A model generated the notes under the pieces. It did not search any database, was not told the origin of the DNA, and was given only the letters and a program-made list of their open reading frames with translations. A program made the position numbers and the translations under genes. Of a stretch of DNA of 64,000 bases, positions 30,731 through 46,550 are shown piece after piece (the first letter of the stretch is position 1; the number at the start of each line of letters is the position of its first letter). This DNA is from Escherichia coli. Its GTDB lineage: Bacteria; Pseudomonadota; Gammaproteobacteria; Enterobacterales; Enterobacteriaceae. Where the stretch lies: NCBI RefSeq assembly GCF_013122565.1, contig NZ_CP053258.1. One strand, 5' to 3'.

Positions 30731-32965
<2,235 letters not shown>

Positions 32966-33239
32966 TTATAATTGAATTAATCCACGGATGCGATAGTTGA
33001 GATCTTACATATTGTTGGTTAAAGAGATGTAGATCAAATTGATCGTAATTAAGCTTTTTTGATTATGTCCGAATTCGGACAAATGCTTTATAAAAAAGGG
33101 TTTTAGCTTCATATCCTTCAAGTAATGAGGGAGAAAACAAGGCTGACAACCTTATTTTCCCGCCCTCATTTCGAGGCAGCATTTTGTGCTCTGTTTAAAA
33201 TTTGTGATCACTGTGTGATTTTCACAAAAGCCACACTAT

Positions 33240-34133
<894 letters not shown>

Positions 34134-34186
34134 TTACCTCATCAATCGCTTGTTGTTATATGTTGTGTTGTGCACATCTATCCATT

Positions 34187-34210
34187 TAGACGTCCAGATG
34201 TAAAGATGAA
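34187..34210. promoter_or_regulatory. Tandem MetJ boxes in the metF promoter
   Basis: agacgtcc-agatgtaa-agatgaag: three consecutive 8-bp repeats matching the met-box consensus AGACGTCT, upstream of metF. Confidence 0.55.
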
Positions 34211-34542
34211 GGAAAAGCCGAAGGGCGTCAACCGAAAAATGACCACTGATGGTGAGGAAATATCAGGGAAGTTGAAATTTTTTCATCTGAAGAAAAAAAC
34301 AGGGATACCAATGTTCAGTATGAGGTGAATATTGGGAAAATGCTGACGTTATTAATTTTATATTTATTTAAATGATGATTCATTCTGATTTATTTACTTA
34401 AAAAATGAATTATATTTTCAAATAAAACAAAAAGATACTTTAAGCCTCTCCGGCCTCCTCGCTTTTAATTTTGAACCACTTCAAACAAATAATAAATTCC
34501 TAAGAATTAAGTTGCAGACAAATTATACATCCCTCACGATAA

Positions 34543-34580
34543 GTAGAACGTTCTAGTAGAACGTTCTACTTATATAAATA
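34543..34580 (+). promoter_or_regulatory. Tandem perfect 12-bp palindromes (TAGAACGTTCTA x2) overlapping a -10-like TATAAAT; putative LacI-type operator and promoter for the EIICB operon
   Basis: gtagaacgttctag-tagaacgttctac at about 34543..34569, 55 to 80 bp upstream of the EIICB start, followed by tatataaat. The palindrome has the central CG and AACGTT core typical of LacI/GalR-family operators. Confidence 0.55.
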
Positions 34581-34623
34581 ATCGTTCTTGCGCAGTCATC
34601 TGCGCTATTCGGGGGAAATCAGC

Positions 34624-36123
34624 ATGGGTCTGATATCGAGTGTCGTAAAATCACTTTCTAAACTGTCGATGATTGGTCGCGCGCTGATGCTGCCAATTTC
34701 GCTTCTGCCTGCCGCCGGGTTGTTGCTGGCGTTCGGCGATAAATTCCACATGCCGTTGATGATGAATGCCGGCGGTATCATTTTTGATAACTTGCCGATG
34801 CTTTTTGCTATCGGTTCTGCCGTGGGACTGGCTTCAGAATCGGGTATTGCGGCGCTATCCGCAGCTGTATCCGTCTTTGTCACTAATATCACCATCGGTA
34901 CTGTCCTTGGCATCACACCAGAGATGGCCGGGCAAGGCGGTAAATATGCGATGGTGGTGGGGATCCCAACGCTGCAAATGGGCGTCTTCGGCGGCCTGAT
35001 ATGCGGGGTTCTGGCGGCGTGGTGTTACAACCGTTTTCATACCATGCAATTACCAGAATTCCTTGGCTTTTTCTCCGGCAAACGCTTCGTGGCTATCGCG
35101 ACGGCTTTTCTTTCCTTCATCCTTGGCTTGTTACTGCCCTATGTCTGGCAACATATTCAGTCGGGAATCGATGCCCTATCAGTTATCGTCAATGGTGATA
35201 ACCAGGCGGCATCGACCTTTATTTTTGGTGTGACAGAACGTGCGCTCATTCCGCTTGGCCTGCACCACATCTGGTATCCATCGTTCTGGTACTCTTTTGG
35301 TGATTACACCACCCAGGCAGGCCAAATGATCCACGGTGACCAAACAATTTGGTTCAAAATGCTGGAAGAAGGTGTGAAATCGTTCAGTAGCGACAGCTAC
35401 CATAACGCGGGTAAGTTTTTACAGGGCGAGTTCCCGCTCATGCTGTTCGCGCTGCCTGCGGCGTGTCTGGCGATGTACCATGAAGCACACACCAAAAATA
35501 AGAAAATTGCCGCCGGTATTCTGTTCTCTGCCGCATTAACCTGTTTCCTGACAGGTATTACAGAACCCGTTGAATTTACCTTTATTTTCGTGGCACCGGT
35601 ACTGTACGTATTCAACGCGATAATGGCTGGCCTCTCCTATATGGCGATGTATCTGCTCCATGCCCATATTGCAAAATCCTTCTCGGCAGGGCTTATCGAT
35701 TATATTTCGTTTGGCATCCTGCCATCATTTAACGGCTACGAAACCAACTTCCTGAGTGCCATTATTGTTGGCGTACCGATGGCGATTATCTATTACTTCA
35801 CTTTCCGCTTTGTTATTCGCCGTTTTGATGTGAAAACACCGGGTCGAGCCGAAAGCACCGTATCCGCTAACGATAAAACCGATGATGAACTGGCTACGGA
35901 AATTATCAGTCTGCTGGGCGGCCAACAAAATATCTCTTCCGTCGCATCCTGCATAACACGCCTGCGTCTGGAAGTGGCAGATAAGGATGTAGTTGATAAA
36001 GATGGACTGAACAATGTCGGTGCTCGTGGTGTGGTTTTTGTCGGCGATAACGGCATTCAGGTGATTTTTGGCGCACGTGCACAATTTATCGCGCAAACCA
36101 TGTCGACGATGATTGGCAAATAG
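34624..36123 (+). CDS. PTS glucose-family EIICB component, sugar specificity unknown; accessory
   Basis: About 499 aa from MGLISSVVKSLSKLSMIGRALMLPISLLPAAGLLLAFGD, preceded by a GGGGGA Shine-Dalgarno. A PtsG/MalX-like EIIC domain is followed by a C-terminal EIIB domain with the phosphorylatable Cys motif SCITRLRLEV. The ORF-track start at 34588 is probably too far upstream. No EIIA gene is adjacent. Confidence 0.85.
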   Translation: MGLISSVVKSLSKLSMIGRALMLPISLLPAAGLLLAFGDKFHMPLMMNAGGIIFDNLPMLFAIGSAVGLASESGIAALSAAVSVFVTNITIGTVLGITPEMAGQGGKYAMVVGIPTLQMGVFGGLICGVLAAWCYNRFHTMQLPEFLGFFSGKRFVAIATAFLSFILGLLLPYVWQHIQSGIDALSVIVNGDNQAASTFIFGVTERALIPLGLHHIWYPSFWYSFGDYTTQAGQMIHGDQTIWFKMLEEGVKSFSSDSYHNAGKFLQGEFPLMLFALPAACLAMYHEAHTKNKKIAAGILFSAALTCFLTGITEPVEFTFIFVAPVLYVFNAIMAGLSYMAMYLLHAHIAKSFSAGLIDYISFGILPSFNGYETNFLSAIIVGVPMAIIYYFTFRFVIRRFDVKTPGRAESTVSANDKTDDELATEIISLLGGQQNISSVASCITRLRLEVADKDVVDKDGLNNVGARGVVFVGDNGIQVIFGARAQFIAQTMSTMIGK

Positions 36124-36196
36124 TCATAAGATTACGCTTTGTTGGAGGTTCTGGTCCCTGACTGGAACCTTCGTACTTATTGTTCAGGGAGTGAAG

Positions 36197-37213
36197 TTGA
36201 AGAAAGTCAGCATAATTGATGTTGCCAAAAGCGCAGGAGTCTCGGTCTCTACTGTGTCGCTGGTCCTGCGCCAGAAAGGCAAAATTTCCGAGGCAACCAT
36301 CGAGAAAGTTCATGCTGCCATTACTGAGCTTGGCTACGTGCATAATGTTGCCGCCGCCAATTTACGCTCCAACACTTCAAATCTTATCGGTCTGATTTTA
36401 CGTGATTTTAGCGATAGCTTTTCCATCAAAGTGATGGCAAGTATTGTTCAGGAACTGGAAGCACAAGGATATATGGTTTTCCTCGGGCAACCACAGAACG
36501 AGCATGAACATCTTGAACGCTGTTTGCTTTCCTTCAAGCAACAAGGTGTTGCCGGAGTGATTTATCTGGCTTCCGATGCGCAGCGTGAAACCTTACCCGC
36601 GCTGATTCGCCAGTGCCCTCTTCCTCTTGTCGTCGCCTCACAATCCCCCATCAAAGATGAATGCAATCTGGTATTGCGCGACAACCAGCAGGCGGCAAGC
36701 CTTGCCACGCGTTATTTAATTGAGCGTGGACATCGTTACATTGCCTACCTCGGCGGCAGAGAAAGCGATCTTATCCGCCAACAGCGACTGGTGGGTTTTC
36801 GCCAGACCCTGGCAAAATTCGGTATTGCCAGTCGTGACGAGTTCACGCCAGCCTGTGACGATGATACATACGCCGCCAGCATGGCCACGCGCCAGTTGCT
36901 GGAGAATAACAATGCCATCACCGCCCTACTCTGCCATTCGCCCGAGGCCATGATTGGCGGTATCAACGGCATACATCAGGTGGGGCGCACCGTCGGGAGA
37001 GACATCTTTCTGACCCAGCAGGTGGCGCTAATTGGTTTTGAAGATATGCTGCACATCAATCTGACCTCGCCCGTTTTCACCTATGTCTCTTCCGCCAGTG
37101 AAGAAACCGGACGCCAGGCTGCTAATCTAATAATCCGCAAGTTAAAAGACCCGGAGCTGCAAATTCAAAGAATTGCGCTTTCCGGGCAACTGGTAGTGCG
37201 GGAATCGGCGTAA
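36197..37213 (+). CDS. LacI-family transcriptional regulator; accessory
   Basis: The N-terminal HTH (KKVSIIDVAKSAGVSVSTVSLVLRQKGKIS) is the LacI/GalR signature, followed by a periplasmic-binding-protein-like sugar-binding domain. The likely start is TTG or GTG at 36191..36197 after AGGGAG, giving about 338 aa; the ORF-track start at 36113 overlaps the EIICB gene. Confidence 0.8.
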   Translation: MKKVSIIDVAKSAGVSVSTVSLVLRQKGKISEATIEKVHAAITELGYVHNVAAANLRSNTSNLIGLILRDFSDSFSIKVMASIVQELEAQGYMVFLGQPQNEHEHLERCLLSFKQQGVAGVIYLASDAQRETLPALIRQCPLPLVVASQSPIKDECNLVLRDNQQAASLATRYLIERGHRYIAYLGGRESDLIRQQRLVGFRQTLAKFGIASRDEFTPACDDDTYAASMATRQLLENNNAITALLCHSPEAMIGGINGIHQVGRTVGRDIFLTQQVALIGFEDMLHINLTSPVFTYVSSASEETGRQAANLIIRKLKDPELQIQRIALSGQLVVRESA

Positions 37214-37336
37214 TTATTTCTGCCAGTCTCCGTCTTTAGCCGGCGGTCATCGCCACAACTGCACTGATGGATATGGTATTCTTTCGAGTATCTTTGCGGG
37301 CACTAACGCCAGGAGTATCGCCATGAGAATGGCGCG

Positions 37337-38818
37337 ATGAACACAGGGAATTTCGAGTCGATACAAATCATACTCGACGCGCAAGAGTGGCGTAGCCTGC
37401 CGCTGCATCTGCGTCTGTATCACGCTTTTCGCCAATTGGTGATTTCCGGCGCGTTGTCTGATGGCGCAAAGCTGCCGTCCGCTCGCGCACTGGCCCAGCA
37501 ACTTGGTCTTTCCAGAGATACCGTCGAAAATGCCTATTCCCAGCTTCAGCGCGACGGTTTTATGACCCGCAGGCAGGGAGCCGGGAGTTTCGCCAGCCGC
37601 CAGGGGATCCCGCAAATTCAGGGGCAGCACGCTCAGCCCCCCTCGCCCGGACAAGCACCGGCATTAACCGCCCGCTGGCAGCCGATTGCCGATCGCGCCG
37701 TCTCTTTCGATGCCCGCCAGATGCAGACCTTTACGCTTGGCCTGCCGGAAACGCGAAACTTCCCGCTAAACATTTGGCAGAACTTTTCCCGCCAGATCCA
37801 ACGTGAGCAGGCGCATACGCTGATGTTAAATAGCGATCCGCAGGGCGAGCCGGAGCTGCGCCAGCAAATTGCGCATTACCTTAATTTTGAACGCGGCGCG
37901 AAGGTAGATGCAGAGCAGATTGTGATTGTCAGCGGCGCACGGCAGGCGTTCTGGCTGTGCGGGCAACTGCTGGCAGAGGCCGGGCAATCAGTGGCGATGG
38001 AAAATCCAGGCTATCCCGGCGCGCGTCAGGCGTTTTCTGCCGCACAGCTTAATCTTCTTCCCGTTGAAGTGGATGACGCCGGGATCCGGGTGGATAAACT
38101 GCCGCCCGCACCGCTGGTTTACGTCACGCCGTCGCACCAGTTTCCTTCTGGTCATTTGCTCACGCTGGCGCGCCGTCACGCCCTGATTGCCTGGGCACAG
38201 GCGCACAATGCGTGGATTATTGAAGACGACTACGACAGCGAATTTCACTACACCAGCGCGCCCGTCGCCTGTCTGCAAGGGTTAGACTGCGAGCAACGCA
38301 CCCTGTATGTCGGCACTTTCAGCAAAACGCTCTATCCTGGTTTGCGCATTGGTTATCTGGTGGTGCCTGCCTCGCTGGCTGCGCACTTTGCCGCCGCACG
38401 TAATTTGCTTGATGGCGCAACGCCTGCGTTATCCCAACTGACGCTGGCGCGATTTATCGAGTCCGGTCATTTTGCCGCCCATATTCGCACCATGCGCAAT
38501 ATGTACGCGGTGCGACAGGCGAGCCTTGCAGAGGCTATTCATCAGCACTTAAGTGAATGGGTCACGCCAGTGGTGACATCCGGTGGATTACAAATGCCCT
38601 GCTGGCTGCATGAAGATGTTGATGAGCAACAGACGCTGAACGCGGCGCGCCGCGCCGGGTTAAATATCGCCGGGATGCGCCAGTTCTGGCTGACGCACCC
38701 CGCGCCCGCGGGCTGGCTGCTGGGATTCGCCGCCTTTACCCCCTACGAAATTGAGCAGGGAGTCAAGCGTCTGCGGGCTGCATTATGCGCTGAAAACGTG
38801 CGCCCAGCCGGGTCATAA
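37337..38818 (+). CDS. MocR/GabR-family transcriptional regulator (GntR HTH fused to a PLP aminotransferase-like domain); accessory
   Basis: 493 aa. The N-terminal winged HTH (LYHAFRQLVISGALSDGAKLPSARALAQQLGLSRDTVENAYSQLQRDGF) is followed by a long aminotransferase class I/II-like domain. Confidence 0.8.
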   Translation: MNTGNFESIQIILDAQEWRSLPLHLRLYHAFRQLVISGALSDGAKLPSARALAQQLGLSRDTVENAYSQLQRDGFMTRRQGAGSFASRQGIPQIQGQHAQPPSPGQAPALTARWQPIADRAVSFDARQMQTFTLGLPETRNFPLNIWQNFSRQIQREQAHTLMLNSDPQGEPELRQQIAHYLNFERGAKVDAEQIVIVSGARQAFWLCGQLLAEAGQSVAMENPGYPGARQAFSAAQLNLLPVEVDDAGIRVDKLPPAPLVYVTPSHQFPSGHLLTLARRHALIAWAQAHNAWIIEDDYDSEFHYTSAPVACLQGLDCEQRTLYVGTFSKTLYPGLRIGYLVVPASLAAHFAAARNLLDGATPALSQLTLARFIESGHFAAHIRTMRNMYAVRQASLAEAIHQHLSEWVTPVVTSGGLQMPCWLHEDVDEQQTLNAARRAGLNIAGMRQFWLTHPAPAGWLLGFAAFTPYEIEQGVKRLRAALCAENVRPAGS

Positions 38819-39869
38819 TCTCATACGGGATGGTGTCGCAGGCAGCCGCAACCTCTTCCAGCGTCTGGCCTGTGCCAATAAACTCCACCTTATCGCCCGC
38901 CGTCGGCGTGACGGCGCTGGCATCGACCATAAAGCTGTCCATACACACCCGCCCCAACACCGGTAACCGCACCCCGCGCCAGCATACGCCCGCCGGAGGA
39001 CGCATATTTCGCGGAACGCCATCCGCGTAACCCGCGGATATCGTGGCGATACGCAGCGGACGCGTGGCGGTAACCGTGCTGCCGTAGCCAACTGGCGTTC
39101 CGGCCGGAACATCCTGCACGCGCAGTATGGTCAGCGTCAGCGTAAAGACCGGTTTTAACGGCCTGGAAAACCACGGCTGGGTGACGCCAAACAGCGCAAT
39201 CCCCGGACGGCAGAGATCTTCCCGCCAGCCCGAGTGCAAAAACATCCCGCAGGAGTTCGCCAGCGAAAATCGGCTGCTGGGGAAAACCGTTTTTGCCTGC
39301 TGAAGTCGCGCGTGTTGCGCCATATTTAACGCATGATCCGGCCTGTCGGCGTTCGCCAGATGGCTGATGATATAATCCGGCGCAGGCCAGTTACGCTCAC
39401 GAAAAATCGCCGCCAGACGCATCAGTTGTTGCGACATCACGCCCAGCCGCGACATCCCGGAATCGAGCTGAATCATCACCGCACGCCGCTGCTGGCGCGT
39501 TTCCAGTAACGTAAGCCACGCCATCACCTGGTCTACGGAATTGAGCAATGGCGTGATCTGCTGCGCGTAACAAAATGCCATCGCCTCCGGCATAACCCCA
39601 TTAAGCACCACCACCCGCGCATCAGCGGGCAAGCATTTACGCAGCGCCACACCTTCAGAAAGCTGCGCGACAAAAAAGATCCGGCAGTTCGCCGCATACA
39701 GGGCGGGAGCAATCGCCTCCGCCCCCAGACCATAGGCATTCGCCTTCAACACCGCGCCACATTGCGCACGGGCAGCATGGCGGGCCAGGGTGCGATAATT
39801 TTCGACAATGGCGGCGAGATTGACGCACATAACGCCGCACGCCGCCTGAATTTCAGCAAGAGTTATCAT
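38763..39869 (-). CDS. Alanine racemase-family PLP enzyme (fold type III); accessory
   Basis: 368 aa. Contains the PLP-lysine motif [11 protein letters not shown] near the N-terminus and an Alr-like C-terminal beta domain. Overlaps the MocR 3' end by about 56 bp (convergent) and the downstream SHMT-like gene by 4 bp. Confidence 0.8.
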
Positions 39870-41104
39870 TGATAAGGCAACGGATAGCGGTTGGTTAGTT
39901 GTATTACTTTTTGCTCAATATCGGCGCAAATGTCTGCAATATCTGACGCGTTAATGGCCAGAATGATTTCACTTATCCAGTCAGCAATAAGCGCAAAGTC
40001 ATCCGCCTGCATCCCACGCGTGGTGCAGGCCGCGCTGCCAATACGAACGCCGGAGGTAATCGACGGCGGCTGCGGATCGCCCGGCAGGGTGTTTTTATTA
40101 ACCGTGATCCCCGCCAGTTCGAGAAAATACTCTACCTGTGCGCCGGTTAACCCCTGCGGGCGCAGGTCGATAATCCCCAGATGGCAATCGGTGCCGCCCG
40201 TTAACAGCGTCAGACCGCGCTGCGCCAGTTGCTGGCACATCGCCTGCGCATTGTCGATGACCTGCCCGGCATAACGTTTAAATTCCGGTTGTAATGCCTC
40301 GCCAAGCGCCACCGCTTTCGCCGCGATAACGTGCATCAACGGCCCGCCCTGCAAACCGGGAAAGATGGCGCTGTCGATTTTTTTCGCAAGCCGGGCGTCG
40401 TTGGTGAGGATCATGCCGCCGCGCGGCCCGCGCAACGTTTTATGCGTGGTGGTGGTGACCACATCAGCATACGCCAGCGGCGAAGGGAAACAGCCGCCCG
40501 CCACCAGCCCGGCAAAGTGCGCCATATCCACCAGCAAAATGGCGCCCACGGCATCGGCAATGCGGCGAAAACGGGCAAAATCATAGCGGCGTGGATAAGC
40601 CGATCCTCCGGCAATAATCAACCGTGGGCGCTCACGCAGCGCGATCATCTCGACTTCATCCATATCAATCAGGCCACTATGGGCATCGACGCCATAGTGA
40701 AAAGCGTTAAACCATTTGCCAGATTGATTGACCGGCGAACCGTGCGTGAGATGCCCGCCGCATTGCAGGCTCATGCCAAGAATTTTGTCGCCGGGTTTCA
40801 GCAACGCCAGATAGACCGCCTGATTCGCCTGGCTGCCGGAGTGAGGCTGCACATTGACGTAACGTGCGCCAAAGAGTTGCTGGGCGCGGGTTATCGCCAG
40901 CATCTCAACCTCATCAATAAACTTACAGCCGCCGTAGTAGCGATGCTGGTAATAACCTTCGGCGTATTTATTGGTTAACACCGACCCCTGCGCCGCGAGA
41001 ACAGCGGGGCTTACGAAATTCTCCGAGGCAATCAGTTCCAGCGACTACTGCTGGCGCTGTTGCTCCTGGTTAATCAATGCAAAAAGTGGATCGTTATTTA
41101 TCAT
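39866..41104 (-). pseudogene. Serine hydroxymethyltransferase (GlyA)-like PLP enzyme with an in-frame amber stop at codon 20
   Basis: Reverse-strand translation from ATG at about 41104 gives [50 protein letters not shown]..., then continues through the SHMT signatures HSGSQAN and [16 protein letters not shown]. The TAG is at about 41045..41047 where GlyA has Glu. The ORF-track entry is only the 371-aa reinitiation product from GTG at 40981. Confidence 0.75.
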
Positions 41105-41337
41105 GCGCTTCCCCCGAAAATTCATCATGCGATGATTTTCGCAGGGAAAACGTCGCCCGCACCCTGCCACTTTTTAGAATGAGCGCAGACCACCTATGTC
41201 GTTTTACTTAAAAGAAGAGGGAAGAAGGCTCCAGGCATCTCCATATGCGATTCTGGTTGGTAATACATCATATTCCAGCTGCTCTTATCTGCCTACGTTA
41301 TTGCATAGGCAGAATAAGGCAGCCTCAATACGTACTT

Positions 41338-42891
41338 TTACTTGATATATTTCACGCGCATACCGTTGATCTGTTCATCCGTGATGGTGTTACCCGCTTT
41401 GAAGTAATCAACCACGGCGTGATAAACGTAATAACCGCCCGTTGTGTTACGCGCTTTCCCTTCGGTAAAGGCGGTAAAACCATCTCCACCATCAGCAAGG
41501 AAACTCTGGGTGGCAATAGAATAAACTGTCGCATCTTCAATGGGTTTGCCATTCAGAGTCAGTGTGATTACCCGCTGACCAACCGGCTTGCTGCTGTCGT
41601 ACTTCATTTCCAGGCCTTTCGATACCTGTAAAACGCCATTACTTAAACTTGCGCCGTGTTCCATCAAACTGCGTAATTGTTTCCCTGTGAGATCCATCGT
41701 CACCAGTTCGTTGGGGAACGGGAAGGTACTGATGACGCCGCCCATCGTAATCGCCCCTGCGGGGATCTCATTGCGAATACCGCCAGAGTTGGTTAAGGCT
41801 ATTTGGGTGTTTTTACCCGCCGCTACCAGTAAAGCGTCAGCCGCCAGGTTCCCGAGGGAAGCCGATTCACCATAGGCACGTTTTAATTCAACCGGCGATT
41901 GCGCCACCGTTTGTTGCACCACTTCATCAAGCTTTTTATTCCAGCCGTCGATCACCTGTTTTGTTTGCGGATCGGGCTTCCACTCGTCGGCGTAAATGGT
42001 TTTCAGCTCGAAGTTTTTCACCGTAAAATCATGCGGCTTCTCTTTGTAGTCGAGGACCAGTTTGCCCACATCAATCCCGCCGCTGTCAGTGGAGAGGATG
42101 AGCGTATTGCCGACTTTAATCGGTTCCGGCGTACCCACATGTGCATGTCCGGTGATCAAAATATCCAGCCCTTTCACCTGACTTGCCGTCTGAATATCTT
42201 TATCCAGTGCGCGACGCACATCGGTCCCTCCCATACTGGACTGGCGGGCCGGAACACCTTCATGGATCAGGGCGACGGTCAAATCAACCTTGCCTTTAAG
42301 TTCATCGATATAACGTTGTAGCCATTTAATTTCATCGCGCGCTTCAATACCCACGCGCGTGGCAGCAGATACCGTATCGTTGAAAGCAAATACTCCGTGC
42401 AAACCTATAACGCCTATTTTCACGCCGTCTTTTTCGATGATGGTATATGGCTTATCCCAGAATGATTTACTGCTGTTCTGATAAAAAACATTGCCCTGCA
42501 CAATAGGGAATTTTGCCTGACTCAACTGTAATAATGTGTTGTCCCAGCCGTGGTCAAATTCATGGTTGCCTATCGTGACGGCATCAAACGGCATAGTATT
42601 CATAATATCGATAATAGCCTTACCTTTGGTCAGGCTGCTGATATATGGCCCGGTAAAATAATCACCCGCATCAAAAAACCATGTCGCTTTATTTTTTGCT
42701 TTTTCTTGCTTAACCAGCGTAGTGATATTTGCCCAGCCGCCAATATCCCGTTTACCGTCAGCGATCCACGGCACTTTATAAGGCTCGACATGCGCATGGA
42801 GGTCGTTGGTATAAATGATGGTGACATCTTTGGCGCAAGCCCAGAACGGCAATGTTAATGCGATACCCGCAGCAAGTATTTTAATTTTCAT
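41338..42891 (-). CDS. Secreted metallophosphoesterase / 5'-nucleotidase-family protein (UshA/CpdB-like); accessory
   Basis: 517 aa with an N-terminal signal peptide ([20 protein letters not shown]) and calcineurin-like phosphoesterase motifs ([36 protein letters not shown]), followed by a C-terminal 5'-nucleotidase-type domain. Confidence 0.8.
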
Positions 42892-43023
42892 AAATAGTCC
42901 CTTTCAGTGATTTAAAGGATTGCTACATTACGTTCTGAAAGAGTTATTTATGTGAGAGTAATCACATCCGCAGGGGATAGTTGCCGGACAAAATCAACGA
43001 CCTTGTGAAATCGTTGGTGATAT

Positions 43024-44154
43024 ATGTCAACTCTGTTTACGATTAATGCCTGCAAGTCGTTTGGTTGCCGTAATTTAGGGCAACCAACATCGACAGATTA
43101 CAGCTGGCCAGACTATCGACTGGGTTATCCGGCACTGCACTGTCGGGCATGTGGAAGTTACCCGCCGTTGTTTGACGAACAGCAATTTCGTGACTGGTTG
43201 TCAGTTCACTTATCTACTTTTGCAACTGAGAAAGGTCATTTCTGCCCGGTATGTTATGGCACAAAGACGATTTGTTATGGCCACAATCCACAGGGGTCGC
43301 AACGCATTCAATGTCGTAACTGCAAAAAAGTCTGGACACCTAAACAATATCAGAAAGAAATAACGCCTCCTGAAATAATCGAAACGGTTGCTCTTCTGGT
43401 GCCATTTCAGGGAGCCAGCAATGGGCAGAAACTGTATGTTTTAATCAGTTTTGATGCTCTTCGCGGTAATATTCTTCATCTTTCTACTAATTACACGCAG
43501 CATCAGGCTGGAGAAAGTCTGCATTATCGATACAGAGGAAATGCAGAACCAGAGTTACACGAGAGTAATATTGTACAACGCGTTGATATGCGCGAAGCAC
43601 AATTTCTACGCCGCAGTCAGTTTGATGAAATTCAGTATGGCAGCGCAGCGCTCAAACGCAATGCTAAAGGTATTATTCTGCGTCCGGTTATCACTGCACA
43701 CGGGCATTTCAGAGTACTGAATATTTTATTCCCTACAGTAAAAACACATGTAATTTCACACGAGTGTTTTTTAAGAGGTGCCATTATTACGGCATGGGCT
43801 GATCTGTTTCGCCAACAGCAAGGTGAAATTTGGTTTATTGAAGAGGAAATAGCTGACTATACCGATAATATGCCCTGGAGTTTTCAGGGAACAACATATC
43901 ACGGCTGGTGGAAAAATCAGTGGCAACTTTGGGGTCAGGGCAAAAATCGTAAAATGGTATGTGCATTAACAGGCGGAAATAACAGCAAAGCTGAAATGCT
44001 CTCTTTCGCAACCAGCAGACATTTTATCGACTGGCTACATAAACAAGCAGTATTTACTCACAGCACCCCGCTTTCCGCAGGGCGCGTTACGCAAATACTG
44101 CTTTCTCTGGCTCAGGATTACAACAACTGCGCCAGCCGGTTGATATCCGACTGA
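43024..44154 (+). CDS. Cys-rich protein with two N-terminal zinc-ribbon motifs (IS1 InsA-like finger), rest unknown; accessory
   Basis: 376 aa. Motifs C-x5-C...HC-x2-C and CPVC...GSQRIQCRNCKKVW; the latter resembles the IS1 InsA zinc-finger region (from memory). The last 12 codons overlap the metL 3' end on the opposite strand. Confidence 0.6.
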   Translation: MSTLFTINACKSFGCRNLGQPTSTDYSWPDYRLGYPALHCRACGSYPPLFDEQQFRDWLSVHLSTFATEKGHFCPVCYGTKTICYGHNPQGSQRIQCRNCKKVWTPKQYQKEITPPEIIETVALLVPFQGASNGQKLYVLISFDALRGNILHLSTNYTQHQAGESLHYRYRGNAEPELHESNIVQRVDMREAQFLRRSQFDEIQYGSAALKRNAKGIILRPVITAHGHFRVLNILFPTVKTHVISHECFLRGAIITAWADLFRQQQGEIWFIEEEIADYTDNMPWSFQGTTYHGWWKNQWQLWGQGKNRKMVCALTGGNNSKAEMLSFATSRHFIDWLHKQAVFTHSTPLSAGRVTQILLSLAQDYNNCASRLISD

Positions 44155-46550
44155 ATCGCCCCGGCGGTGACATCGCGCCCTGCGCCTGGTCCGCGGATCA
44201 CCAGAGGGTTATCGCGATACCAGCGGCTTTCGATGGCAAAGACGTTATCGCACGGCAGCAGTGATGCCAGCGGATGATCTTCACGCACCGCTTCCACGCC
44301 CACACGCGCTTTGCCGTTGGCATCGAAACGCGCCACGTAGCGCAGCACCAGCCCCATTTCGCGGGCCGCTTCCAGCCGTTGCAACATCTGCTCGTTGAGT
44401 TCATCGCCGTTTTCAAAGAAATGGTCGATGCTACCGCCTTCGCAATGGGCAGGCACCAGCGATTCCACGCGCACCTGATCCGGTTCGATGTCGTAACCCG
44501 CTTCACGCGCCAGAATCACCAGCTTGCGCATTACGTCTTTGCCGGAGAGGTCGTCACGCGGATCAGGCTCGGTTAAGCCCTGCTGCCACGCCTGATCCAC
44601 CAGCTCGGTAAACGGCACGCTACCGTCGAATTGCAGGAACAGCCAGGAGAGCGTGCCGGAGAAGATCCCACTGATCGACAAAATAGTATCGCCGCTGTCG
44701 ATCAGATCGCGCACGGTGTGGTTGATCGGCAAGCCCGCGCCGACGGTAGCGTTGTACAGCCAGTGACGCCCGGTTTTTTCGAAGGCGTCGTGGATCTGGC
44801 GATATTTATTGCTGTCGCTGGCTCCTGCCAGTTTGTTGGCGCTAATGACGTGGAAACCGTGGCTGGCGAAATCGAGATACTGGTCAGCAAGCTGCTGGCT
44901 GGCGGTAACGTCCAGCACCACTAAATCATCATACGGATGGGCGCGCATCCACAGGAACAGCGACTCTTCATCCTGCTCAACCGCTTCATCGTTGAAGAAG
45001 GCTAACGCGCGGCTGGCGTCCAGCCCGTCATAACTCAACAGGCTGCGGCGGCTGTCCACCACGCCTGCCAGCACAAATTCAAAGCCGGTACGTGCCGAAA
45101 GCGTGCTCTGCTCACGGGCGAACAGTTCCAGCCAGCGGGAACCGATATTGCCCTTGCCGAACAATACCAGGCCGATGCGTTTTTCCGCGCGGAAGACGGA
45201 CTGATGCAGCCCCTGAATCAGGCTTTCGGTCGGGCCGGTGCGCAGAACTGCCACCAGGCTGATGCCGTCATCGGACTGCCAGGTAAACTCGACCGGCTGG
45301 CCTTTCAGTTGCTGCCAGAAGCGGTGGCAATGCAGCGGGTTACGGGTGACACCCGCCCCGACCATCGCCACCAGCGCCAACCCCTGACGCAGGCGCAGCT
45401 CGCCAGGTAATCCCGCTTCGTCTAGGATTTTCAGCGCACTGTCGGCCACTTCTGAGGTGTAGCAAAATTGCAGCAACTGGCGATCGTTATGCACGCCAAC
45501 CGCCAGTGGGCGCACCTGCGCGCGTTTCAGGATCTGGTCGATCTCTTTATGCGCCAGTTTGAAATCCTGGCTGGCGGGCACCTGAAACTCAATCAAGCAG
45601 ACATCGTCGTGGCTGGTGACAATACGCGCACCAGTACCGGAGGCCAGCACGCGTTCAATGCGCGTGGAACCTTGATCCGGCGTGTAGCTACAGCGCAGTT
45701 GCAGGTCAATTTCGCTGCCTGATACCGGCTGTAAAGTACGGGCGTGGAGAACCGGAGCCGCCAGACGCGCCAGTTCGCTGGCTTCATCCAGACGCAGCAA
45801 CGGCAACAGGCAGGCATCTTTCACTTTACGCGGGTCGGCACTGTATACCCCGGCGACGTCGCTCCAGATGGTTACACGAGAAACACCCGCCAGCGCACCG
45901 ATTTGTGTCGCGGAGTAGTCGGAACCGTTACGCCCCAGCAGCACCGTTTCACCGGCGTTGTTACGGCTGATAAACCCGGTCACCACCAGACGTTTACCCG
46001 GATGTTGTACCAGTAGCTGTTGCAGCAACGGGTAAGAAAGCCCTTCATCAACCTGCGGCTGCGCAGCGCGTTCAGCGCGTAAAAACTCGCGGGCATCAAG
46101 CCAGGCCGCTGGCAGCCCTTGTTGATTAAGTACCGCAGACATCAGGCGCGCCGACCACACTTCACCATGGCCCACCACTTCCGCATACACCGCATCGTTA
46201 ATACCGCTGTCGAGCAGCGCCGCCAGGCGCTCAAGATCGCTGACAAAAGCGCTAATGAGGCTATCGGCTTCTTCAGCGGGTAGCAGACCGCTAATCAGAT
46301 CGCACTGATAGCGACGCAGCGTTTGTTGAACCTGATGCGCAGAGAGACGATCGGTCTGGCTTAGTTTCAACCAGTTAATCAACTGGTTAGTGGTGCTACC
46401 AGCGGCGGAAACCACCATCATATCGTCAGGCTGAGAGTACTCCGCCATAATGCCCGCGACACGCAAATAACACTTCACATCAGCCAGACTACTGCCACCA
46501 AATTTATGCAGTTGACGACCTTTCGCCCCTGCCTGCGCAATCACACTCAT
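44118..46550 (-). CDS. metL: Bifunctional aspartokinase II / homoserine dehydrogenase II
   Basis: 810-aa ORF MSVIAQAGAKGRQLHKFGGSSLADVKCYLRVAGIMAEYSQ... ending ...INRLAQLL. Confidence 0.96.
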   Translation of the reverse strand: MSVIAQAGAKGRQLHKFGGSSLADVKCYLRVAGIMAEYSQPDDMMVVSAAGSTTNQLINWLKLSQTDRLSAHQVQQTLRRYQCDLISGLLPAEEADSLISAFVSDLERLAALLDSGINDAVYAEVVGHGEVWSARLMSAVLNQQGLPAAWLDAREFLRAERAAQPQVDEGLSYPLLQQLLVQHPGKRLVVTGFISRNNAGETVLLGRNGSDYSATQIGALAGVSRVTIWSDVAGVYSADPRKVKDACLLPLLRLDEASELARLAAPVLHARTLQPVSGSEIDLQLRCSYTPDQGSTRIERVLASGTGARIVTSHDDVCLIEFQVPASQDFKLAHKEIDQILKRAQVRPLAVGVHNDRQLLQFCYTSEVADSALKILDEAGLPGELRLRQGLALVAMVGAGVTRNPLHCHRFWQQLKGQPVEFTWQSDDGISLVAVLRTGPTESLIQGLHQSVFRAEKRIGLVLFGKGNIGSRWLELFAREQSTLSARTGFEFVLAGVVDSRRSLLSYDGLDASRALAFFNDEAVEQDEESLFLWMRAHPYDDLVVLDVTASQQLADQYLDFASHGFHVISANKLAGASDSNKYRQIHDAFEKTGRHWLYNATVGAGLPINHTVRDLIDSGDTILSISGIFSGTLSWLFLQFDGSVPFTELVDQAWQQGLTEPDPRDDLSGKDVMRKLVILAREAGYDIEPDQVRVESLVPAHCEGGSIDHFFENGDELNEQMLQRLEAAREMGLVLRYVARFDANGKARVGVEAVREDHPLASLLPCDNVFAIESRWYRDNPLVIRGPGAGRDVTAGAIQSDINRLAQLL

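Follow-up and report, generated by a model that had tools for sequence, protein, structure and literature searches.

The window analysed here is a stretch of 64,000 nucleotides of Escherichia coli (NCBI RefSeq assembly GCF_013122565.1, contig NZ_CP053258.1), and the subject of this report is the interval between its genes metF and metL. On the map of open reading frames (ORFs), katG (30731-32950), metF (33240-34130) and metL (44118-46550) are all situated on the (-) strand, and metB is placed downstream of metL. In K-12 MG1655, metL and metF are spaced by 348 bp, i.e., by the few hundred base pairs that a preceding reading of this DNA without database searches (the sequence-only reading) had given, whereas 9,987 bp lie between them in the window. 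Homology to K-12 in blastn searches ends at position 34277, 147 bp upstream of metF, and starts again at 44117; positions 34278-44116 (9,839 bp) are therefore extra relative to K-12, which agrees with the additional 9.9 kb proposed earlier. The 147 bp beside metF (34131..34277), which form the left edge of the variable interval, are common to K-12 and other genera and constitute the sole part of the K-12 spacer that is kept in all occupied loci.

According to blastn comparisons with K-12 and three E. coli locus variants, the interval absent from K-12 (34278..44116) is composed of three cassettes: cassette A with a phosphotransferase system (PTS) EIICB gene and a MalI-like repressor gene, cassette B with a MocR-family regulator, an alanine racemase (Alr) and a serine hydroxymethyltransferase (SHMT), and cassette C with a 5'-nucleotidase and a gene for a protein of 376 aa. 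All seven genes listed in the sequence-only reading were found, and the NCBIfam models bear out its family names; the SHMT gene, though, is not intact, as it contains a TAG at codon 20, such that the 371-aa ORF represents only its downstream part. The metF-metL interval is very probably a long-lived variable locus with three functionally independent cassettes, and neither one inserted island nor one pathway.

The distribution of the cassettes was determined by searching each segment separately against 5,426 complete E. coli genomes. Cassette C was found in 1,844 of them (34%) and is missing from 66%, cassette A was found in eight, and cassette B in three, in addition to some Salmonella; A, B and C together, i.e., most of the interval, were found in none of the 5,426. 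The flanks of the window are 97-98% identical to K-12, and their best match in the complete E. coli genomes reaches 98.5%, which points to an E. coli lineage, or a very close relative, with no near representative among these genomes. Among the annotated E. coli variants of the locus, some possess C only, others A and C, and others a hypothetical gene, then B and C, and then two further nucleotidases and Tsx. Compared to the strain with A and C, the window carries positions 37215-41337 inserted between the stop codon of the MalI-like gene and that of the nucleotidase. The fallback assumption of the sequence-only reading, independent acquisitions, essentially matches the distribution of the cassettes.

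The site between metL and metF has already been listed as genomic region GR 31 in extraintestinal pathogenic E. coli (ExPEC; PMC12928451), with Tsx and three UshA-like ORFs as contents, for which nucleoside processing was proposed by the authors (PMC12928451). GR 31 of BEN2908, CFT073, UTI89 and related strains resembles the locus described here in its site, in the core nucleotidase (ORF 431 in that paper) and in the adjoining 376-aa gene (PMC12928451), whereas it differs by two further nucleotidases plus Tsx and by the absence of a PTS or MocR cassette, instead of which the window possesses cassettes A and B. The combination found at this described site is thus new, and its component genes are each annotated elsewhere. 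A literature search on metL-metF islands, 'alanine racemase 3', c4896-c4899 and domesticated IS1 elements in connection with nucleosides turned up only the BEN2908 paper.

Concerning cassette C, the gene at 41338..42891 on the (-) strand encodes a periplasmic 5'-nucleotidase/metallophosphoesterase of 517 aa (UshA/YfkN-like; NCBIfam and PDB match). The protein matches Metallophos/5_nucleotid_C, exhibits the motifs DLHAH, GDYF, GNHEFD and GHAH as well as an N-terminal signal sequence, and is around 98% identical over residues 19-517 to the 'Nucleotidase' of PDB entries 3IVD/3IVE, which we take to be c4898 of E. coli CFT073 bound to uridine and cytidine. ORF 431 of GR 31 is presumably the same c4898 of CFT073 and PDB 3IVD. 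In B2 strains, Tsx and two further nucleotidases are added at metF-metL (PMC12928451), which supports a role of cassette C in nucleotide scavenging.

A scan for the family of the 376-aa protein with one genome per bacterial species yielded 36 loci, on which the proteins of the window were placed by tblastn. The order metF, nucleotidase, 376-aa gene, metL-metB was found in Citrobacter (>8 species), Klebsiella pneumoniae, K. oxytoca, K. spallanzanii, Kosakonia and Phytobacter, and equally in Superficieibacter, Kluyvera, Pseudocitrobacter, Salmonella arizonae and E. whittamii. At this site, the nucleotidase is 87-98% identical across the genera of Enterobacteriaceae, similar to metF and metL, and its identity at fourfold-degenerate sites in comparison to Salmonella, Klebsiella and Citrobacter amounts to 0.41-0.52, against 0.49-0.64 for the flanking core genes. 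The synteny across genera and the core-like divergence argue for vertical descent of cassette C and for its loss in K-12-like lineages, and since outgroup genera carry C, the empty site is the derived state. The term accessory island, as used in the sequence-only reading, is thus appropriate relative to K-12, whereas in the Enterobacteriaceae the C pair is the ancestral occupant and K-12 displays a derived, deleted state.

This history is difficult to reconcile with a classical mobile island that was inserted en bloc at the 3' end of metL and possibly moved by the transposase-like gene, an explanation that we regard as very improbable. A gene with a transposase fold does lie at the metL edge, presence of the interval is patchy with an empty site in relatives (K-12 and the E. 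coli genomes without C), and clusters of nucleotidase, 376-aa gene and Tsx are situated at other chromosomal sites in Enterobacter, while some E. coli and Citrobacter have them as a second copy. Against this stand the lack of an integrase among the seven genes of the interval and of Rfam or tRNA matches in 33000-45000, as well as the repeat search of 34000-44300, which revealed no direct or terminal inverted repeats at the borders and only short pairs at chance level. Moreover, the last 37 nt of the 376-aa gene overlap the 3' end of metL, such that there is no end of an element beyond it, and the C pair, with its core-like divergence and its synteny in more than ten genera, includes a protein family in which no DDE triad is conserved. 

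As further observations at the borders, the metL-proximal 200 bp of the K-12 spacer (locus L004, 6270-6469) have no match in the occupied loci and contain the palindrome GCCGGATTAAGCGTTTACGACGAATCCGGC, which resembles repetitive extragenic palindromic (REP) elements; a REP-like sequence is also found at the junction of A and C in strain UTME-7 (L002, 5716-5787). In the clusters away from metL, the nucleotidase and 376-aa genes are accompanied by Tsx and by one or two further nucleotidase paralogs (L019, L021, L022, L039-L043). They are found in Enterobacter, Citrobacter sp. wls619, E. coli SCPM-O-B-8794 and Escherichia sp. MOD1-EC7003, and some genomes thus possess two copies of the nucleotidase/376-aa cluster.

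An alignment of 16 loci from more than ten genera shows striking conservation of the 132 bp that separate the nucleotidase from the 376-aa gene, at distances at which synonymous sites are nearly saturated. At the centre of this divergent promoter region, a perfect CRP consensus site (42951..42966, TGTGAGAGTAATCACA, i.e., TGTGA-N6-TCACA) is situated, which is the sole match in the 64-kb window (0.02 expected) and is found at the same position in about 30 related enterobacterial loci. A palindrome of the form CAACGA-N10-TCGTTG (42995..43016), which was also flagged as a hairpin, lies just 5' of the 376-aa gene in the same alignment, and TTACGTTCTGAAAG is invariant in this intergenic region. A remote relative likewise has a CRP consensus site in its divergent region (L048, 4082-4097). 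With its central CRP site and its functional theme, cassette C resembles the genes for nucleoside scavenging governed by CytR and CRP (tsx, nupC, nupG, udp, deo, cdd), and the neighbours of genes related to the 376-aa gene encode NupC, NupG, nucleoside phosphorylase, DeoB-like proteins and nucleotidases; CytR itself, however, is a protein of the LacI family and unrelated to the presumed regulator of 376 aa, and no CytR box was found, no search aimed at one having been made.

This 376-aa protein (43024..44154, (+) strand) possesses two Cys4 zinc ribbons and a predicted RNase H-like domain with the fold of DDE transposases. It is annotated only as 'cytoplasmic protein', and its close homologs are confined to the Enterobacteriaceae. 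The NCBIfam search gave no family match for this Cys-rich protein, and the Pfam and PDB searches gave only weak zinc-finger noise; an exhaustive profile search recovered around 50 full-length remote relatives of 400-570 aa. With a 21-sequence alignment restricted to Enterobacteriaceae, the AlphaFold2 model was unusable (predicted local distance difference test, pLDDT, 43), whereas addition of the remote relatives resulted in a good model (pLDDT 93, predicted template modelling score 0.93), in which an RNase H-like fold of the transposase/integrase type is predicted together with an N-terminal zinc ribbon. Many of the remote relatives among the Foldseek matches in the AlphaFold database are named 'IS1 family transposase' or 'InsA N-terminal zinc ribbon', and the second zinc ribbon matches IS1/IS1595 models weakly.

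Compared to the IS1 transposase (InsA/InsAB'), the 376-aa protein is thus similar in its N-terminal Cys4 zinc ribbon of the InsA or IS1-IS1595 type, as far as weak sequence matches indicate, and in the C-terminal RNase H-like fold common to DDE transposases and integrases. There are also differences: the IS1 transposase model NF033558 reaches 22 bits at a cutoff of 100, with only the zinc ribbon (residues 74-123) matching; no frameshift architecture is found; and the RNase H-like domain lacks a conserved Asp, as judged from a sequence alignment of 55 family members without superposition of active sites, such that a DDE triad was not recognized. Conserved polar residues of the family are instead T121, N156, Y168, R197, H228, H246, E/D247 and R251. 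Furthermore, terminal inverted repeats, multiple copies or a variable location were not found for the gene, which is single-copy and syntenic in more than ten genera.

The neighbourhood of the family is recurrent. In the Enterobacteriaceae and in the relative P0369, the gene is divergent from a 5'-nucleotidase gene; for the relative P0379, the divergently oriented neighbours are a DeoB-like gene, a gene for a nucleoside phosphorylase and one for a NupG-like symporter, and for the relative P0376 they are genes for a NupC-family transporter and a nucleoside phosphorylase. A metagenome scan with the alignment of a subfamily at around 20-25% identity yielded five loci, and in all four that are informative a 5'-nucleotidase gene is situated immediately upstream on the same strand. 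In total, neighbours of the nucleotidase or NupC/NupG/PNP/DeoB-like kind occur in five of the six subfamilies checked, down to around 20% identity. The fold, the gene context and the conserved footprint point to a regulator, and judged from the structural model the 376-aa protein is probably a domesticated transposase acting in this role. The wider proposal is more tentative, and we give it somewhat less than an even chance: that the family comprises undescribed domesticated IS1-like transposases which have lost the DDE triad and serve, together with CRP, as dedicated regulators or nucleoside sensors of scavenging genes (5'-nucleotidases, Tsx, NupC/NupG, nucleoside phosphorylases) across the Gammaproteobacteria.

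Some further observations concern the same gene. Its alleles are very divergent within E. coli, with 74% amino acid identity and 0.53 identity at fourfold-degenerate sites in comparison to strain 2013C-4282 (L001, 9725-10852), compared to 98% for the nucleotidase; across genera, the 376-aa protein is 57-63% identical versus 87-95% for its neighbours. At the locus of one remote relative (L056, 43-7428), two ORFs for GH92-family glycosidases are situated upstream of the nucleotidase and transposase-like genes, all in the same orientation.

Cassette B begins with a MocR-family, PdxR-like transcription factor dependent on pyridoxal phosphate (PLP), with a length of 493 aa (37337..38818, (+) strand; NF052282 PdxR, 435 bits, cutoff 320). 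It has a helix-turn-helix match at residues 21-89, contains the lysine motif FSKT, and is equal in length and 89% identical to its Salmonella ortholog. Its 3' end overlaps by 56 nt the convergent gene for a cytoplasmic alanine racemase paralog of 368 aa (38763..39869, (-) strand; TIGR00492, 237 bits, cutoff 168), which exhibits the PLP-lysine motif and whose start overlaps the SHMT stop by 4 nt. Close relatives of this Alr are limited to E. coli (93-95%) and Salmonella enterica ('alanine racemase 3', 83%), the next ones being at most 49% identical; these distant, mostly alphaproteobacterial homologs were considered as a functional lead and rejected, as they have no SHMT neighbour. The SHMT paralog itself has a frame of 412 codons (39866..41104, (-) strand; NF000586, 556 bits, cutoff 335) and a full-length family match with the catalytic-lysine motif TTTTHKTL; it is around 55% identical to what we take as the sequence of K-12 GlyA. 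In the window it is a pseudogene, with the in-frame TAG (amber) at codon 20 (CTA on the (+) strand, 41045-41047), a position that is Gln in the Salmonella and RMDEC465 orthologs. Beyond the paralogs in Salmonella serovars, including Typhi and Dublin, the next matches are 62-69% identical and appear to be housekeeping GlyA (alpha- and betaproteobacteria, Xenorhabdus).

In Salmonella, the order is metL, a gene for an MscS-like channel, one for a protein of 332 aa, a 374-aa homolog of the 376-aa gene, the nucleotidase, SHMT (intact, 412 aa) and Alr in one direction, MocR in the opposite direction, and metF; the relative position of B is identical in the window. At fourfold-degenerate sites, B of the window is 0.68-0.73 identical to Salmonella versus 0.49-0.59 for the flanking genes, and 0.87-0.93 identical to E. 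coli 2013C-4282 versus 0.77-0.83 for the flanks. Since B is thus more alike than its flanks, it must have moved between the lineages after their split. GC content was also considered as a sign of foreign origin and dropped, as it amounts to 0.56-0.60 in B and is not above that of metL or katG.

The state of the cassette differs among its carriers. The amber codon 20 of SHMT characterizes the window; 2013C-4282 and WL297 possess Gln at this codon and another nonsense codon in SHMT (RYAG*VID); in E. coli RMDEC465 and Salmonella, SHMT is intact with 412 aa; and in Escherichia sp. MOD1-EC7003 only a deletion scar is left (L015, 7725-7860), in which the SHMT 5' end directly follows 136 bp from the 5' end of MocR. 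Sequence comparison thus indicates that cassette B is a lateral gain followed by repeated independent decay. No published description of a MocR-SHMT-Alr cassette was found in the literature.

Upstream of SHMT, a leader or operator region (41105..41195, (-) strand) exhibits direct repeats of the GTGG type and a predicted stem-loop over the ribosome-binding site. Conservation among the window, two E. coli, Salmonella and a metagenome relative of 75% identity extends over around 90-110 bp upstream of the SHMT ATG and no further, and B therefore seems to possess a control region of its own. The stem-loop, which would cover the Shine-Dalgarno sequence, shows little covariation in four sequences.

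This leader is one of the features that bear on an operon of nucleotidase, SHMT and Alr, in which B and C would be one unit: a periplasmic phospho-compound would be dephosphorylated and its amino acid processed under control of MocR. For such a unit speaks that in all B loci with known flanks the nucleotidase is followed immediately by SHMT-alr in the same orientation, and that no strong intrinsic terminator was found after the nucleotidase gene. We nevertheless consider it unlikely, as B is missing from around 99.8% of the C-bearing E. coli and from all C-bearing Citrobacter, Klebsiella and Kluyvera loci examined, has a conserved leader of around 100 bp that is separated from the nucleotidase by unconserved sequence, is younger than C at synonymous sites, and decays while C stays intact.

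Regulons of PdxR/MocR factors that contain GlyA-family genes have been predicted in other bacteria (Suvorova & Rodionov 2016, PMC5320631). Cassette B resembles these in its MocR factor above the PdxR cutoff, the adjoining SHMT gene and the upstream GTGG-type direct repeats, whereas the partner in cassette B is an alanine racemase and the regulator is convergent with its presumed target instead of divergent. No pdx genes (pdxST, pdxK) are present in cassette B of E. coli or Salmonella, in which SHMT and Alr are the neighbours of the regulator, and the cassette is absent from LT2 and K-12, which are among the genomes analysed in that study. The PdxR-like score of the regulator, a PLP sensor, and the frequent inclusion of GlyA-family genes in PdxR regulons elsewhere (PMC5320631) would also suit a module of spare parts or resistance, with PLP-responsive backups for enzymes inactivated by 2-aminoacrylate or by antimetabolites of the cycloserine or haloalanine type. 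A further point in its favour is that 2-aminoacrylate is documented to damage Alr/DadX and GlyA in Salmonella (Flynn & Downs 2013, as cited in PMC12172467 and PMC5320631). 

The chances of this explanation are low, although slightly better than those of a B-C operon: its support is associative only, the cassette was repeatedly lost in E. coli, and no feature of inhibitor insensitivity was identified. A catabolic role fits equally, e.g., for alpha-methylserine or D-serine via SHMT and the racemase; alpha-methylserine is handled by an SHMT-type activity (EC 2.1.2.7).

Cassette A is situated next to the metF upstream region. Its first gene (34624..36123, (+) strand) encodes a PTS EIICB of the glucose family (NCBIfam) with 499 aa and no EIIA domain, which therefore would rely on Crr. 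Both the EIIC motif GITEPVEF and the EIIB motif CITRLR, with the phosphorylatable Cys, are present in the translation, which aligns over its full length to TIGR02002 and NF008301. With 563 bits the protein stays under the cutoff of 592 for the glcB-type model TIGR02002, equally to its matches to the nag, ptsG and malX models. The second gene (36197..37213, (+) strand) encodes a LacI-family repressor of the MalI subfamily with 338 aa (NF007449, 324 bits, cutoff 310), labelled malI by RefSeq in the eight E. coli genomes with cassette A. A candidate operator of this repressor (34539..34573) lies upstream of the PTS gene and consists of a perfect palindrome of 35 bp, with two TAGAACGTTCTA boxes in arms of 17 nt that are 100% complementary and a centre of 1 nt. 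The palindrome is conserved in E. coli, E. whittamii, Klebsiella spallanzanii and Kluyvera intermedia, in each case 5' of the PTS ortholog.

The pair of PTS and MalI-like genes is situated between metF and the nucleotidase in K. spallanzanii and between the 376-aa gene and metL in Kluyvera. Its identity to Klebsiella and Kluyvera at fourfold-degenerate sites (0.43-0.52) is as low as that of core genes, and cassette A therefore appears to be an old unit of two genes that was sporadically retained. No catabolic enzyme was found that travels with it, the extra neighbours in Kluyvera and Klebsiella being a LysR regulator and a gene of the carboxymuconolactone-decarboxylase family. A hairpin with a 14-bp stem and without a T-rich tail is located between the PTS stop and the MalI-like start (36143-36173).

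The organization of cassette A is reminiscent of malI-malX of K-12: in both, a MalI-subfamily repressor is paired with a Glc-family EIICB taken to depend on Crr, and the presumed operator is a palindrome whose core is AACGTT. The two systems differ, however, in that the genes of the window are co-directional and not divergent, in that no gene for a MalY-like enzyme is present in the window, and in that the EIICB fits the GlcB-type glucose model better than MalX (563 versus 320 bits), while remaining below all curated cutoffs.

With all three cassettes described, the single pathway suspected in the sequence-only reading can be assessed, i.e., the uptake and breakdown of a sugar-amino-acid or nucleotide-linked conjugate, with import by the PTS, trimming by the nucleotidase and processing of the amino-acid part by SHMT and Alr. 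The genes are adjacent in the window, and neither a characterized operator nor an annotated operon contradicts it directly. Yet the cassettes occur separately and with different divergence histories, the combination of all three was met in no complete E. coli genome, the PTS pair of Kluyvera lies on the opposite side of the core, beside metL, each cassette has a regulator and a conserved control region of its own, and of the two PLP enzymes, SHMT is represented only by a pseudogene in the window. The suggestion therefore has hardly any credit left.

In the preferred reading of three independent cassettes at a long-lived variable locus, cassette C is the ancestral core, in which a CRP-controlled periplasmic 5'-nucleotidase would dephosphorylate external nucleotides for nucleoside uptake, and the transposase-derived, divergently transcribed 376-aa protein would regulate the nucleotidase; this pair has been deleted in K-12 and in about two thirds of E. 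coli. Cassette A would represent a self-contained sugar uptake unit with a Crr-dependent EIICB of the Glc family and a MalI-like repressor binding the 35-bp palindrome. In cassette B, which is rare and laterally spread, the PdxR-like MocR factor would control a second SHMT and a second alanine racemase, and the early amber codon of SHMT probably also weakens the translationally coupled alr.

Several points weigh against this reading. While gene content, distribution, synteny, divergence, pseudogene state, predicted fold and conserved sites come directly from the analysis, the transcription units, the regulatory roles, the control by CRP, the repressor-operator pairs and all substrates are deduced from them, and scans for promoter and terminator consensus sequences gave matches no commoner than in shuffled sequence. 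B lies beside the nucleotidase in the same orientation in every B locus with known sequence upstream of SHMT, and this constant position means that a functional link of B and C may exist. Identities at fourfold-degenerate sites between genera are near saturation, such that the statement that a cassette is as old as the core genes is a rough one. The SHMT amber codon may stem from an error in sequencing, or this strain may suppress it. Finally, one remote subfamily of the 376-aa protein (L053) has no nucleoside genes nearby.

Other cargo was also observed at metF-metL: a LysR regulator in Kluyvera and K. spallanzanii (L047, 13933-15277; L038, 6885-7805), adjoined in Kluyvera by the gene of the carboxymuconolactone-decarboxylase family; the MscS-like channel and the 332-aa protein, the latter without family, in Salmonella (L006, 3592-5450); and a protein of 324 aa without family in some E. 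coli (L001, 2983-3957).

Taken as it was first posed, the finding matters little, as it concerns a further combination of cassettes at a site known to be variable, with one of the enzymes dead. The direction of change is inverted with regard to the first impression: it is the reference strain K-12 that lacks a conserved nucleotidase module. The MocR-SHMT-Alr cassette provides what appears to be a clean example of lateral gain with subsequent repeated, independent decay. To our knowledge, few bacterial transposases domesticated as regulators are known. A good candidate for such a bacterial transposase turned regulator, and the lead most worth following, is the 376-aa protein, whose gene occurs in a third of the E. 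coli genomes, ExPEC among them, as well as in Salmonella, Klebsiella and Citrobacter.

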